The notes below the pieces were generated by a model that worked only from the letters and a program-made list of their open reading frames with translations, was not told the origin of the DNA and did not search any database. A stretch of DNA of 17,324 bases from Chthoniobacteraceae bacterium (GTDB taxonomy: Bacteria > Verrucomicrobiota > Verrucomicrobiia > Chthoniobacterales > Chthoniobacteraceae): the NCBI GenBank assembly GCA_031409655.1, contig JANNXQ010000041.1, forward strand, positions 1 to 17,324, read 5' to 3'. Below, in pieces: positions 2,168 to 8,225 of this stretch. The translations under genes and the position numbers were made by a program. Position 1 is the first letter of the stretch. Each line of letters opens with the position of its first letter.

Positions 2168-2420
2168 GTAGAGTAGGCGAGAAGCGATCGCGGGGGCAAG
2201 CTCTGCGCTGGCCCTGCCGGGTTTGCTCCCGAGCCCTCATCAAACCGTGCAGGCGGCTTTCCCGCACACGGCTTTCCGGGAAAAGGGTCGGTGCGTGCAT
2301 CCGTGAAAGCCGAGCGTTTCTGCACGGATGCACGGACCGACCCCTCGACTGCACCTCCGATTCACCCGGGCTTGTTCAACAAGGGTTGCTTGCCGGCTTC
2401 GCGGCAAAGCAACCTTCCGG
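2168..2420 (-). ncRNA. ORF-less group II intron-derived element 1 at a cassette junction, domain V and VI intact
   Basis: DV AAGCCGTGT-GCGG-GAAAG-CCGC-CT-GCACGGTTT (2274-2242) with AGC triad and 2-nt bulge; DVI ends CCT-A-CTCTAC with bulged A at -7; bounded by GGCGAAC (2427-2421) and TCGGC (2167-2163). Confidence 0.8.
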
Positions 2421-2433
2421 GTTCGCCGTTTGT

Positions 2434-3269: not shown

Positions 3270-3760
3270 GTAGAGTAGGCGAGAAGCGATCGCGGGGGCA
3301 AGCTCTTCGCTGGCGCTGCCGTTTTCGCTTCCGACCCCTCATCAAACCGTGCAGGCGGTTTTCCCGCCGAGGCGGCGGCGGCGGGGAATAGGGCGGACGG
3401 TGGGCGGGCGAGAGGGCTTTCCGAGTTCCATTCATGCGCTTGGCCTTTGGCTTTCATGCAGGGGTCCACGCCGCACTGCGCGGCGGGCTCCAGAGTCCGT
3501 ATTGAAAGCATACGAAGGGACGGGTTGAGGCCAGGCCCTTCCTCCTGAATCACCTCTTTCGGGGCCACCTCGGGGCCAGTCCATGGCCAGTTGGCACCCG
3601 GAGCAACTCTGAGAAGGCCCTTTCGCAGAAAGTGGAATCCGCAAAGGAGCCGTCGCGACGGTCGGGCGGCTAAAACTCCGGGGCGAAAGCGCGCCTCTGC
3701 CTCACCCGGGCTTGTTCAACAAGGGTTGCTTGCCGGCTTCGCGGCAAAGCAACCTTCCGG
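3270..3760 (-). ncRNA. ORF-less group II intron-derived element 2 at a cassette junction, domain V interrupted
   Basis: Last 37 nt identical to element 1 (3270-3306 = 2168-2204); 69-bp identical 5' block (3702-3770 = 2362-2430); 47-nt insert in DV (3368-3414); bounded by GGCGAAC (3767-3761) and TCGCC (3269-3265). Confidence 0.75.
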
Positions 3761-3820
3761 GTTCGCCGTTGGTTCGACTGGAGAATGCCCCCGTAGATGC
3801 GCCCCAAATAGCAAATAGCG

Positions 3821-4294
3821 TCATAGGGCCGGAGAAGCTGAATCTGTCGGGGTGTATTTGCCGTCCACGAGGAACACGCCGGGGTAAAGTGAAGCAACCA
3901 CGATCGAAACGAGGCGCTCGTCGGAAATGTGCATGATCGAATGAGCAAGCTCCTCAAGAATACAGGCAACCTTGAAAGGGTAGGCCAGCGGTTGCATCTT
4001 GTTGCAGTCCACAAAGACCCACGGCTCAATTGTCACATTGATCGTTTCCGGGCCGGATGGAGAATAGGTAAGCTGCCCGCCAGGAAGGTTGAGGCGGAAG
4101 GGTGCCGTGGCGAACGTAACGTGTGTTTTGCGGACGAAACGCACGGATGGGCCGATGCAGGAGACTGCCTCCCAGAATGCTTTCGCGATCGGAAGCATGG
4201 CAGGCGGAAGCGGATTGCAGCTCACGTCGAACATGTGCCGATACTGCTCTGGAATCCCTGCTTCAATATCGCTGGAAGTAACCGGGGAGATCAT
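3821..4294 (-). CDS. Hypothetical protein (cassette 3) with EELAH zincin-like motif
   Basis: 157-aa ORF filling the interval between GTTCGCC and GGCGAAC; ACILEELAHSIMH resembles HExxH. Confidence 0.6.
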   Translation of the reverse strand: MISPVTSSDIEAGIPEQYRHMFDVSCNPLPPAMLPIAKAFWEAVSCIGPSVRFVRKTHVTFATAPFRLNLPGGQLTYSPSGPETINVTIEPWVFVDCNKMQPLAYPFKVACILEELAHSIMHISDERLVSIVVASLYPGVFLVDGKYTPTDSASPAL

Positions 4295-4305
4295 AGGCGC
4301 GCATC

Positions 4306-4341
4306 GGCGAACGACTCAAGCCTGCAGCGCCATTGTTAGGC
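4306..4341 (-). other. 36-bp internally deleted attC-like site
   Basis: Minus strand GCCTAAC-AATGG-CGCTGCAG-GCTTGAGTC-GTTCGCC; the upstream gene's TAA stop lies inside the R'' box, as is typical of cassettes. Confidence 0.7.
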
Positions 4342-5103
4342 GTTTGGTTTGAGGACATTTAGAACGGCGTTTTCGGTTGCTTCGAGTTCGGTGAAAGTAA
4401 GTTGGTCGCTCTCATCCAGCGAGTGCAACCATAGATTGTAGGTTGGCGCTGTAGAACCATCAGAGGACTTGTCATCGGATCGGGATTCGCTGCTGTCCGA
4501 CCAGCCGAACCAGTCGCCGCAACGGTCATCATTCTTGGATTCGCGGTAGCCGTCCTCGTAGCGCCGGTCGTCGGCTTGGTGGGCGTCCGAATATCCGTCT
4601 TTGGAGTCGTCTTTGGAGTCGCGGTAGCCCTCGTCGTGGCCCCGGTCGTAATCGCGGTGACCGTTTGAATATCCTTTGCTGTAGTCGTCCTTGTCGCCTC
4701 CTCCGCCACGCGTCCAAAACATCGTTGTGCCGTCACGAAGCGTCATAAGAGCGATTCCGTGGCGCTGGGCATACGTAATCGCGCCCCTCTGGAACCCGAC
4801 GGTCGCGACAAGAATGCCTTTGTGAGCGCCCACTGCACGAACTCGGTCATGGAGAACTTGGACGACATCTCGCTTGATGGCGTGGTGATGTCGCTTGCAT
4901 TCGACGAGAACGAGAAACTCGACTGCCAACTCTTGGAAGCGGAGAGTGACGTCGATCTCGAACTCTCCGCTGTCTCCAGTCAGCACTTCCTTGTGAGTCG
5001 CGGTAAACTCTCTCAGGCGGGATCCAAGTGCGGAAAAGTAAGAACGCATCTCTCTCTCGAAGTCAGTCGGACTAATGCTGACGGATTTATCCGTGAACTT
5101 CAT
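4336..5103 (-). CDS. Mrr_cat-type PD-(D/E)xK restriction endonuclease with acidic low-complexity segment (cassette 2)
   Basis: SPTDFE...EIDV...LVECKRH...VVQVL...AHKGILVATVGFQRGAITYAQRHGIAL. Confidence 0.8.
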   Translation of the reverse strand: MKFTDKSVSISPTDFEREMRSYFSALGSRLREFTATHKEVLTGDSGEFEIDVTLRFQELAVEFLVLVECKRHHHAIKRDVVQVLHDRVRAVGAHKGILVATVGFQRGAITYAQRHGIALMTLRDGTTMFWTRGGGGDKDDYSKGYSNGHRDYDRGHDEGYRDSKDDSKDGYSDAHQADDRRYEDGYRESKNDDRCGDWFGWSDSSESRSDDKSSDGSTAPTYNLWLHSLDESDQLTFTELEATENAVLNVLKPNA

Positions 5104-5119
5104 GTGTGCGTGCGAAAGC

Positions 5120-5155
5120 GCCTAACGACAAAAGCCTGCAGCGCCATTGGTCGCC
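5120..5155 (-). other. 36-bp internally deleted attC-like site
   Basis: Minus strand GGCGACC-AATGG-CGCTGCAG-GCTTTTGTC-GTTAGGC; inner 22 nt are 20/22 identical to the 4306-4341 site. Confidence 0.7.
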
Positions 5156-5184
5156 GTTTTGCTCGGATTGCCTTCTCTGCGCAT

Positions 5185-6642
5185 TCATTGGTGATCGTCG
5201 ATAAAATCCGAAGGATCAATAATGCCATCCTTCTGCATCAGAACGAACGCCGCCTGAACTTCGGCCACATTAAGACCGGAGACTGGACCGTAGTATCCGT
5301 TCCCTGTGTCATTTGGCCACAAACTGTTTGGGTTTGTAACTGTATTCCGCATCTCCAGATGAAGATGGGGAGGAAAGGAGGACACGGCACCGATCACTCC
5401 GATGACATTGCCCTTGGCTACGGGGCTTCCTTCTTGGTAGGTGAATGCTGCCTCGCTTCCGATCGTTCCAGGGGAGTTTGGGTTTCCGGCGATGGTATCT
5501 GGGGCGACGTGGACGTAGAGGCTGTCAATGGAATCACCATTCTGTAGCCAATGGCGCACAAGGACGACATACCCAGAGGCCGCTGGTCCGGAAGCTGAAG
5601 CCGGTCTGATGTCAATTAAATGTCCGTTTGCGACAGCCTTGACCGGCTCCCCAACATCGTCCGTGTCGCTTCCGCTATTCCAATCCTCTCCGGCGTGGAG
5701 CCCTCCGAAGAGGGAATAATAGCTTCCGACATCCTGAATATTATACCATCCAGCGCCCGGCGTGGTTGCACCTCGATCGGGCCTTGCCACGGGCGATGCT
5801 GGAAATAGCGTGTTTCGTTCAGGGGCAATTTGCTCGAGCACGCTTCCGGAACCGATTGGATAAGCAAAGTCTGTCGCAATGGAAACACCCGGGGGCAAGT
5901 AGGTTGTTCGGTAAAACTTCTGGGGTTGCGTCGGCGTATCAATGACTTCTGTTCCCGGCGTATCGGAGTTGAACTGTATGAGGGGAAACCATTGGCGGAG
6001 GTTGCTCGACCAAGAGGCAAGGCACATAGCACCGGGCTCAGCGGTCGAGAAAATGAACGTGCATGATCCTTCGGGAGTGAGCTGAAAGCTTTTGAGGGCA
6101 CTGCGGCCATCTGCGGGATCATGTTGGTGGGTCGGTAGCGAACGAAAGCGCGGCGGTGTGCCGGTGTACTCGACGACGTATCCGAAACTAGAAGTGCGTC
6201 CGGAGGAATTGTCGTTCCAGCGTCCGACAATGCCATCCAACTCAAGGAAATTTTCGTTGGCGCCCAAGTTGTTCGGTTCGTTCGCCGACCAGTTTGAATA
6301 GGTGAAAGGCTCGCTGGTCACCCAGCGCCATCCTCCGGCGGGCTCAGGCGAGCCGGTGGGTTGATAACCGCCGATCCAGAAATACGGGTCGGAACGGTTG
6401 GCTACAATTACGTCGTTCTCGGCTGGTGAGGTAATCGTCGCAAGATATCCACCGCGGGCTACCGCGGCGTCGCGGGCTGCAGCCCAAGAAATCGAGGGGG
6501 CAGATACGAACTCATACGTATGTCCGTTGCCCCCGCTGCTGGGTAACCAGACAAACGTTGTTTGGGCGACGCAGCTCCCTGACGCGATCAAAAACGCGGT
6601 GAGAACCATGTATTGCTGACAGGGGTTGCGTTTGGAGCGCAT
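5185..6642 (-). CDS. Secreted C-type lectin domain plus M23 metallopeptidase (cassette 1)
   Basis: Signal peptide; CTLD (GNGHTY, WAAARDAA, GGYLATITS, WIGG, EPNN, WND); M23 motifs HAGED, PVKAVANG, YVH, HLHLEMR. Confidence 0.75.
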   Translation of the reverse strand: MRSKRNPCQQYMVLTAFLIASGSCVAQTTFVWLPSSGGNGHTYEFVSAPSISWAAARDAAVARGGYLATITSPAENDVIVANRSDPYFWIGGYQPTGSPEPAGGWRWVTSEPFTYSNWSANEPNNLGANENFLELDGIVGRWNDNSSGRTSSFGYVVEYTGTPPRFRSLPTHQHDPADGRSALKSFQLTPEGSCTFIFSTAEPGAMCLASWSSNLRQWFPLIQFNSDTPGTEVIDTPTQPQKFYRTTYLPPGVSIATDFAYPIGSGSVLEQIAPERNTLFPASPVARPDRGATTPGAGWYNIQDVGSYYSLFGGLHAGEDWNSGSDTDDVGEPVKAVANGHLIDIRPASASGPAASGYVVLVRHWLQNGDSIDSLYVHVAPDTIAGNPNSPGTIGSEAAFTYQEGSPVAKGNVIGVIGAVSSFPPHLHLEMRNTVTNPNSLWPNDTGNGYYGPVSGLNVAEVQAAFVLMQKDGIIDPSDFIDDHQ

Positions 6643-6660
6643 TTGGAGAGAGCGTTAGTC

Positions 6661-6754
6661 GCCGAACTTGTTAATATACGACTGGGAAAAAGGGTCCAGT
6701 CGCATATTGGGGGGTGCGCCAGTCGTATATTGGAGGGGCCTCCAGTCGCATATT
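6661..6754 (-). other. attI-like site: GTT core plus four phased 13-bp boxes
   Basis: GTTCGGC (6667-6661), 5-bp spacer, then CCAGTCGYATATT boxes at 6673 (inverted), 6696, 6719 and 6742. Confidence 0.65.
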
Positions 6755-6772
6755 TCAATTGCGTAGTGGAAC

Positions 6773-6796
6773 AGGGGTCAGGCAACAAAGCTTGAC
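6773..6796 (+). repeat. Left inverted repeat of the Y1 transposase unit
   Basis: AGGGGTCAGGCAACAAAGCTTGAC is 21/24 inverse to 7861-7884. Confidence 0.75.
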
Positions 6797-6820
6797 AGCT
6801 CAGTCGTGAGGCGGTGAATT
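6792..6820 (+). promoter_or_regulatory. Possible transposase promoter overlapping the left inverted repeat
   Basis: Perfect TTGACA (6792-6797), 17 nt, weak TGAATT, then ATG 6 nt later. Confidence 0.35.
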
Positions 6821-6826
6821 GCGCCC

Positions 6827-7879
6827 ATGCCCCGCAGCCTGCGCATCGAATATCCCGGCGCCTATTACCATGTGATGGCTCGTGGCAACCGGCGCGAGGC
6901 GATCTTTCGAGATCAGGAGGACCGCCGCTTTTTCCTCAAGACCCTCGGCGAAGCGTGCGGGATGACCGGGTGGCGGGTTCATGCCTGGGTGCTGATGGGC
7001 AATCACTACCACCTGATGCTGGAGACGCCGGAGGCGAACCTGGTGGCCGGGATGGGGTGGCTGCAAAACACCTACACGCGCCGCTTTAACACCCGGCACC
7101 GGCTGTGGGGCCGGTTGTTTGGGGATCGCTACAAGGCGGTGCTGGCCGAGGGTGGGAGCGATTACTACTACGAGACGCTGCTGGATTACATCCATCTGAA
7201 CCCGGTGCGCGCGGGCCTGGTGCGGGCGCGCGCGGGCAGGAGTGTGCTGGATTATCCGTGGTGCAGCGTGGGCGGCGGCCATGCGCTGCCGCCTTCAAAA
7301 CGCCCCGCGTGGCTGGCGACGGAGCGGGCGCTGGCGGCGTTTGGGTGCGCGGACACGGCGGCGGGGCGGCGGCGGTTCGTGGAGCGGCTGGATCGCCAGG
7401 CGGTTGAGGAGGAAATGAAGCGCTGCGGGGTGGCGCCGATGCCCGCGGAGGTGGACGCGCGATGCAGCCATTTGCGACGCGGCTGGTTTTGGGGCAGCCA
7501 GGCGTTTGCCGAGGCGGCATTGAAGGTGGCAAAGGGAGTGCTCGAACGGCCAAGGCATCGGACGACTCGGTCGAGCCTCGAAAAGCGCGCGCATGATGAG
7601 GCGCGAGCGGAGGCGCTGCTGGCTTCCGGGCTGGCGGCGGCGGGGTTGACGCGGAATGAAGTGGCGCGGCTGCCGGGGTCGGACGCGAGGAAGGTGGCGA
7701 TCGCGCGGCTGATCTGGGAAGGAACGACGATGTCGCAGGGCTGGGTGGCGGAGCGTTTGCGGATGGGCAGCGCGGCGAATGTGAGCCAGCAATTGCGCCG
7801 GGCCCGGGATGGGGCCTCACAGACGAAGTTGCCCGCGGAACTCAAGCGTCTGATCAATCAGTCAAGAGTTGTTGCCTGA
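6827..7879 (+). CDS. HUH/Y1 transposase (IS200/IS605 TnpA superfamily, RAYT-like) with C-terminal helix-turn-helix-like extension
   Basis: MPR.LRIEYPGAYYHVMARGNRREAIF, HUH motif LMGNHYHL, LFGDRYKA, catalytic YIHLNPVRAGLV, YPW; C-terminal SQGWVAERLRMGSAANVSQ. Confidence 0.9.
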   Translation: MPRSLRIEYPGAYYHVMARGNRREAIFRDQEDRRFFLKTLGEACGMTGWRVHAWVLMGNHYHLMLETPEANLVAGMGWLQNTYTRRFNTRHRLWGRLFGDRYKAVLAEGGSDYYYETLLDYIHLNPVRAGLVRARAGRSVLDYPWCSVGGGHALPPSKRPAWLATERALAAFGCADTAAGRRRFVERLDRQAVEEEMKRCGVAPMPAEVDARCSHLRRGWFWGSQAFAEAALKVAKGVLERPRHRTTRSSLEKRAHDEARAEALLASGLAAAGLTRNEVARLPGSDARKVAIARLIWEGTTMSQGWVAERLRMGSAANVSQQLRRARDGASQTKLPAELKRLINQSRVVA

Positions 7880-7892
7880 CTCCTTTCCTGCC
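7861..7892 (+). repeat. Right inverted repeat of the Y1 transposase unit, containing the stop codon
   Basis: GTCAAGAGTTGTTGCCTGACTCCTTTCCTGCC; TGA stop at 7877-7879 lies inside it. Confidence 0.75.
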
Positions 7893-8196: not shown

Positions 8197-8225
8197 AAGA
8201 GTTGTTGCCTGACCCCTTTCCTGCC
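8197..8225 (+). repeat. Second direct copy of the right repeat
   Basis: AAGAGTTGTTGCCTGACCCCTTTCCTGCC, 28/29 identical to 7864-7892. Confidence 0.75.

Follow-up and report, generated by a model that had tools for sequence, protein, structure and literature searches.

Recurrent 36-bp attC sites in a Chthoniobacteraceae cassette array: probable scars of an attC-targeting IS110/IS1111-type element

The cassette array and its two 36-bp sites

The DNA analysed here (the window, 17,324 nt) is the entire contig C41 of a 6.85-Mb draft genome (G000) of the family Chthoniobacteraceae. On its minus strand, five cassettes follow an attI-like site (6755-6661); in order, they encode a Lectin_C/M23 protein, an Mrr_cat protein, a 157-aa unknown protein, a HEAT-repeat protein and an addiction-module pair. 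The features that bear on the two 36-bp sites are as follows.

6773..7884, plus strand: Y1_Tnp (RAYT-like) element; gene 6827-7879 between 24-nt inverted repeats; adjoins the attI-like site
6661..6755, minus strand: attI-like array head; three 13-nt direct repeats, an inverted copy, then AACAA/GTT
5156..6666, minus strand: cassette 1; 485-aa ORF (6642-5185) with Lectin_C and Peptidase_M23 matches; R'/R'' match 6/8
5120..5155, minus strand: site B, 36-bp deleted attC; join at 5136/5135, identical to that of site A; R'' ends in ACC
4336..5125, minus strand: cassette 2, between the two 36-bp sites; 255-aa ORF (5103-4336) with an Mrr_cat endonuclease domain (PF04471, E 3.8e-16); first bases match its own R'' at 8/8
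4306..4341, minus strand: site A, 36-bp deleted attC; R'' 4341-4335, 6-nt spacer, GCTGCAG 4328-4322, GC 4321-4320, 7-nt spacer, R' 4312-4306
3761..4311, minus strand: cassette 3; 157-aa ORF (4294-3821) with no Pfam match; R'/R'' match 9/10
3270..3760, minus strand: foreign DNA in place of the cassette 3 attC; a repeated element from right after R'', then a group II intron 3' end

The layout suggests that 6661-6755 is attI. Four more copies of this site lie in G000 (C6, C69, C124 and C271), the one on C69 near an apparent intI 3' end; it also occurs at L120 and L184. These copies have no adjacent intact intI and are unlike the site beside the intI of contig C132, which is intact. The 3' end of the C132 intI recurs at the ends of contigs C275 and C66, and an apparent further remnant lies at about 21790 on C69, so G000 has or had several intI copies. 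The terminal repeat of the Y1 element (6773-6796, 7861-7892) is found a third time about 330 nt further on (8197-8225), and hairpins at 2285-2343 and 1408-1506 have ends that resemble it. Two 78-nt tandem repeats, 74% identical, lie within the sequence for the acidic C-terminal portion of the Mrr-domain protein (4535-4690).

The attC of cassette 3 ends abruptly right after R'', and foreign DNA, group II intron 3' ends among it, has taken the place of the remaining attCs of the array. A shorter copy of the foreign DNA behind cassette 3 lies at 2168-2420, with an RF00029 match at 2168-2276. The repeated element that begins after R'' has 8 copies genome-wide, each replacing the remainder of an attC; its starts were located at 3757-3768 and 2417-2428 (minus strand) in the window and on C29 (two copies), C55, C69, C124, C226 and C271 of G000. 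A peptide beside one copy resembles what we take to be the end of an IS91-type transposase, and it had no Pfam match. The group II intron 3' ends (window 3270-3500 and 2168-2276, minus strand; G000 C45 and C226) are oriented like the cassette genes and stop before R'-like remnants.

Sites A and B lie 3' of a cassette gene, and the ends of the cassettes are complementary, as expected of attC. The original prediction of two sites of equal length, 36 bp each, whose inner 22 nt are identical at 20/22, is confirmed, both on the minus strand. The 25-nt motif occurs twice in the window and none of 200 shuffles reached two copies, even allowing 3 mismatches; the full mini-site pattern has only these two occurrences in the whole 6.85-Mb assembly. 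The layout first proposed for the sites holds overall, with three corrections. The left spacer is 6 nt long (AATGGC) and is followed by GCTGCAG, as in full-length sister sites of genome G002, so that the L'' remnant of site A is GCTGCAG and the join falls at 4322/4321; and R'' of site B ends in ACC, not AAC. In the attC consensus, R'' ends in AAC and R' starts with GTT. Site A has both triplets. Its R' reads GTTCGCC, the third correction, and departs from GTTRRRY; R'' and R' are non-complementary in both sites.

Folding agrees with the prediction that the normal hairpin cannot form. Neither site folds better than shuffled sequences (z from -0.02 to 1.43), the pairing probability of AAC with GTT is at most 0.035 against 0.90 in the parent site described below, and the bottom-strand R''/R' pairing typical of attC is absent. 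At most two bases of L' are left, and an L''/L' duplex with extrahelical bases is not formed. Given the lack of an L duplex and of an extrahelical base, the unpaired R boxes and one lost AAC, both sites are probably inert. With no L box left, IntI probably cannot use such a site, and cassettes 1-3 would be fixed as a fused block.

Whether the short sites reflect an assembly collapse, as had been asked, was checked in contigs from four runs (X1-X4) of one study, at a level where rare variants are dropped. One 3098-nt contig of X1 covers 3741-6838 at a depth of 12.3 with zero differences and bridges both sites, and one contig of X2 covers 3741-5242 at a depth of 7.2 and bridges both unchanged; the analysed DNA may itself derive from X1 and X2. 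In X4, site B (5120-5155) is bridged at a depth of 2.4, and one weak joint from 4215 to 4531, with 20 letters on its short side, skips site A. None of the listed X3 pieces bridges either site.

Parent sites, recurrence and the elements at the same point

Sites A and B are genuine attC remnants with an internal deletion. Genome G002, of the same genus, has intact attCs of 170-171 bp whose left arm and right spacer match site A (L185). Compared with these parents, part of a full attC has been lost while both ORFs stay open. The join reads GCTGCAG/GC, and the two parental ends brought together in it have no bases in common, so that it shows no microhomology. Since the two sites are sister sites of one genus attC family, their 20/22 identity does not require copying, and the suggestion that a minimal site had itself been copied is not supported. 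In a DNA search of 60 relatives, the same cassettes were not found with a full or IS-filled attC; the matches were short and fell on the attI-like site and an attC left arm. Elsewhere in G002 (L187, on C177), an attC right arm stands head-to-head with an inverted right-arm copy.

The search of related genomes and metagenomes that had been proposed recovered the same join in three other DNAs: two unrelated metagenome contigs (L126 and L132) and the family genome G078 (L280). This bears out the view of a stereotyped scar rather than random decay. Among the five 36-bp sites in four DNAs, the left spacer occurs in four versions and the right spacer in five, suggesting that the sites arose independently. 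All five have 22 nt between the core triplets, with spacers split 6/7 or 5/8.

The 36-bp form is rare (2/151 family genomes). In 401 genomes of the class, only G000 was recovered, 8 others in this set belonging to the family. The mini pattern with spacers of up to 7 nt gave one chance match in 150 relatives and missed L280, which has an 8-nt spacer. A generic scan for short attCs found 15 loci in metagenomes (2 of the 36-bp type, 3 of 43-44 bp, 7 other short forms and 3 apparent chance matches) and 15 in the genome_contigs collection, none of them of the 36-bp type; the exact motif had 0 matches in genome_contigs. In viral contigs, the 15-mer had 108 loci, none in an attC context, and further viral scans gave 4 coding-sequence matches, then 0, and no relative of the transposase. 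The 43-44-bp attC recurs in metagenome contigs L133, L136 and L137, with GCCTGAGC at L'; an insertion into L' could have left it as a mirror-image scar. In L126, at about 845-865 (oriented) upstream of the scarred cassette, an A/T-rich stretch is fused to an attC right arm whose 8-nt spacer is that of the scar.

The letters of the join are also found at an insertion. On contig C45 of G000, an attC left arm ends in the identical GCTGCAG/GC and continues into an insertion sequence whose transposase gene, on the opposite strand, is of the IS110 family (PF01548 and PF02371 above cut-off). The left-arm pattern had 20 matches in 11 of the 151 family genomes, against 1 for the reversed control. These matches comprised 12 junctions of the C45-type element, spread over 6 genomes, together with 2 scars, 5 ends of a second element type and 1 further case. 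The position within attC is the same in 12/12 junctions and in G057 and G005. The left-arm pattern itself selects for this position; a protein search of 96 genomes, which does not, found relatives of the C45 transposase in 6 others: the close ones (G014, G005 and G057) sit at this attC point, which is not seen for the distant ones (39-47% identity). The transposase of the second element is only 25% identical to that of C45, yet this element uses the same insertion point and likewise has GC at its end. No copy of it was found in G000; its end, GCTTTT, matches the scars best, whereas the resident element matches the GC only. The GC that had been read as the last two bases of L' may be that, and it is equally the end of an IS. 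Beyond the far end of the inserted IS, the attC stem continues undamaged. Genome G513, which has complete copies of the element on its contig C10, carries an IS in each of three successive attCs, and two adjacent scars are thus plausible.

The C45-type element has about 316 nt of non-coding DNA upstream of its transposase gene versus about 130 nt downstream, and the second element has its long non-coding region downstream. The C45-type non-coding region contains a segment that matches the target and is preserved across 6 copies; in G057, where the target differs, the segment differs accordingly. Putative guide segments match both target strands, the top-strand match first, a reading from sequence with one covarying case. 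The subterminal repeat of the C45 element is only 6 bp, and one parse gives end extensions of 7 and 3 bp; a 3-bp extension is the comparison value for IS1111-type ends. An internal CTGCAG on C45 was considered as the far end of the IS and rejected, as it is conserved inside the non-coding region.

At the right junction L281 (G000 C45, 1660-1692), the IS end supplies a GTTRRRY-type box that is predicted to form a 33-bp hairpin with R'' (pairing probability 0.98). More generally, the ends of both types mimic attC arms (L281, L287 and L290), and the left end of the second element pairs into the R' spacer. A 33-bp site followed by a cassette, as from an IntI crossover at the IS-end GTT, was found at none of the 12 junctions. 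Another IS110-family element (L254, G000 C201, about 1622, minus strand), 29% identical to the C45 one, lies at G/TT of an attC R' box, and a similar gene lies near the G078 scar.

Full-length sites with one additional G at the same point were also found. The left arm with this +G had 14 matches in 150 genomes, of which 4 are clearly attC-derived (in G000, G078, G054 and G065), 2 are doubtful and 8 lack attC context. The three +G sites that keep the L' arm have no compensating base in L' for the L'' GCTGCAGGC. From their sequence, these four other attC sites likely carry an IS excision footprint. Genomes G000 and G078 each have an element junction, a +G site and a scar, a co-occurrence that comes from two genomes and from draft assemblies, which often miss IS copies. 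The intact target GCGCTGCAGCGAAC is no longer present in G000, where two remaining full-length attCs on C201 each have a target mismatch, and a related pattern is absent from G078. In G065, there are 11 intact sites versus 1-2 +G sites. Both G065 and G054 have a +G site and no junction match in the left-arm scan.

Proposed origin of the scars and alternatives

We propose, with a probability of roughly 0.6, that the 36-bp sites are scars of an attC-targeting IS110/IS1111-type element that was lost together with the attC stem. The repeatable precise excision suggested in the original prediction would then be the right class of answer, and its agent is most likely an element residing on another contig. 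In a first step, the IS would insert at the fixed L'' point, opposite to the cassette gene, giving R''-spacer-GCTGCAG followed by the IS end GC; this insertion geometry is seen in G000 and its relatives. In a second step, the other IS end, which begins with CTGAG, would replace L'' and pair with the L' arm, so that the old stem refolds with its foot at L'. Folding places the foot of the refolded stem at AAG/CTCAG in 5/6 left junctions, L268 not folding as predicted, and the refolding is proposed from these models. In a third step, the IS would be lost with the stem, and GCTGCAG(G)C would be joined to the L'-R' spacer. If only the IS were lost, in the ordinary way, the attC would keep its full length and gain one G at the insertion point.

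The third step may have been enzymatic. Tentatively, we favour a recombinase that cleaves the near-palindromic CTNAG duplex at the foot of the stem on its wrong arm, a possible route that we would not call probable. A recombinase-independent deletion from the GC or GCTT(TT) end of the IS to the same letters at L' is a more doubtful candidate, and both routes give the same letters. In a more specific and rather unlikely form of the enzymatic route, the ends of these putatively RNA-guided elements would rebuild the interrupted attC arms and the recombinase would excise from the folded site, a cut on either CTNAG arm giving the +G or the 36-bp product. Cutting and sealing of both arms of an intact hairpin by the recombinase was rejected, as it fits the join only with the element orientation reversed. 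The pre-deletion state of either scar was not found in our searches. The two-base swap footprint of IS621 type was seen in 0/5 genomes, and since IS621 geometry predicts such a swap and not +1, the +1 offset is unexplained by the published chemistry.

One alternative holds that the IS leaves cleanly except for a +G footprint and that the hairpin is deleted later, when replication slips from the new GC to that of L'. Full-length +G sites do exist, and so do short attCs with microhomology joins (L138, 38 bp; L139, L184 and L294, 42 bp each, with two of these three possibly representing the same DNA). However, intact sites far outnumber +G sites and offer the longer repeat AGC, at which slippage would leave one base fewer, i.e. 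35 bp. This 35-bp form was absent from the 151 family genomes, its 8-nt-spacer version had 0 matches in both collection scans, and the count is 5 for the 36-bp form versus 0 for the 35-bp one. Two successive events of this kind are therefore unlikely.

It is also quite unlikely that the hairpin was deleted without any IS, by slippage or by a hairpin nuclease and end joining, and that the join fell by chance on the IS insertion point. The many other short attC forms of 38-48 bp indicate that stems are lost by several routes, and L' could itself have supplied the GC as its final two bases. Against this stand the lack of microhomology at the join relative to the known parent family and the identical join in five sites with different spacers; moreover, the +G sites would be left unexplained.

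A functional minimal attC lineage, still recombined by IntI and copied onto new cassettes, has little to recommend it. The constant 22 nt between the core triplets, despite the 6/7 or 5/8 spacers, would fit such a lineage, but it follows from the two spacers of the parents summing to 13. L126 and L132 fold with R'' and R' paired (0.96 and 0.58-0.75, respectively), so that residual IntI activity of the 36-bp class is conceivable from these predicted folds, whereas L280 and the window copies do not fold in this way and one copy has lost AAC. An intact intI is present in the genome, and one truncated site is described as still used by IntI1 in the portion covered of PMC4670013. The 36-bp sites, however, have neither an L duplex nor an extrahelical base, and removal of extrahelical bases cut attC x attC deletion 130- to 490-fold in the accessible part of PMC2727003. 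The form is, in addition, as rare in the family as stated above, with no other case among the 401 class genomes.

Deletion by IntI through L-box cleavage, or by the neighbouring Y1 transposase, is highly improbable. Both genes are in the genome and the Y1 gene lies 1.6 kb from site B, but the two cut points are not preceded by a shared dinucleotide, and L-box cuts, to judge by symmetry with the R-box cut, would not give the join. The role envisaged for the Y1 protein is not borne out, as the flanks (1.2-1.5 kb) of L126, L132 and L280 contain no Y1 match. Finally, although the evidence is at contig level from one study and two runs are possibly the source, an artefact of the library or the assembly, such as collapse at a hairpin or at a repeated IS, is the least credible origin, since unbranched contigs at a depth of 7-12 run through both sites with no differences, the full-length sister sites are assembled without difficulty and the same join occurs in three unrelated data sets.

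Relation to known truncated attC sites and significance

Loss of an attC-targeting IS together with the stem would link two phenomena that are both already known, truncated attCs and attC-targeting IS. Truncated attCs of fused cassettes are described in class 1 integrons (blaGES-1/aacA4, aadA10 and aadA1; consulted portion of PMC4670013). There, the truncated GES-1 site is inert and one truncated aadA1 site is reported active. As in these cases, part of the attC is lost here, both genes are kept and the block is expected to move or stay as a unit. The GES-1 site retains 6 bp of the 1L core, whereas the scars described here keep R'', most of L'', both spacers and R'; and, in contrast to the class 1 cases as that portion presents them, one join recurs in five sites of four DNAs and coincides with an IS insertion point. 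Compared with a canonical attC, as outlined in the accessible part of PMC2727003, the scars preserve R'', a spacer, the start of L'', a spacer and R', 3' of a gene in an attI-headed array. They lack the L''/L' duplex, the terminal stem and the extrahelical bases, which are needed for efficient attC x attC deletion, and measure 36 bp versus 170 bp in the parent.

The C45 element resembles the IS1111-attC group (ISKpn4, ISPst6 and ISPa25; consulted sections of PMC11187229) in its DEDD transposase, its single fixed attC position and its non-coding matches to both target strands, the top-strand match first. In that group, however, the long non-coding region lies downstream of the transposase gene, while in the C45 element it lies upstream and the subterminal repeats are of 6 bp only; the end extension given there for IS1111-type elements is 7 bp. 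Given this upstream position of the non-coding region, we would not file the C45 element in the IS1111-attC group, with which it was compared by description. The consulted sections of that account describe no footprint or deleted site. Nor did our literature search, which did not extend to the original papers on the IS1111-attC group, turn up any account of the scar or footprint.

As with IS621, a CT core is common to the target and the element ends (PMC11208158, in part). In the accessible part of that source, strand cuts lie after the CT core and four bases upstream, two positions stay mismatched until they are repaired, and the retained GC of the scars falls on positions 6-7, those mismatched after exchange. 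IS621 excision occurs at a low rate (PMC13626964, in part) and is documented by PCR of the expected junctions, with no +1 or stem-deleting products in the parts covered of the two papers (PMC11208158, PMC13626964).

Cassette fusions are described as rare and little understood (consulted portion of PMC4670013). A recurring truncation tied to a specific agent offers a testable route to fixed, operon-like cassette blocks. If the proposed loss of the IS with the stem is true, the scars would be a natural sign that IS110/IS1111 excision can be unclean, with +1 footprints and loss of neighbouring folded DNA, a point of relevance where these recombinases are employed for scarless editing. Counting +G and 36-bp marks could also show how often an IS has visited a cassette array in the past. 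Should excision from the folded site prove true, it would provide a defined enzymatic route to truncated attCs and fused cassettes, and 36-bp products with complementary R boxes might remain IntI substrates.
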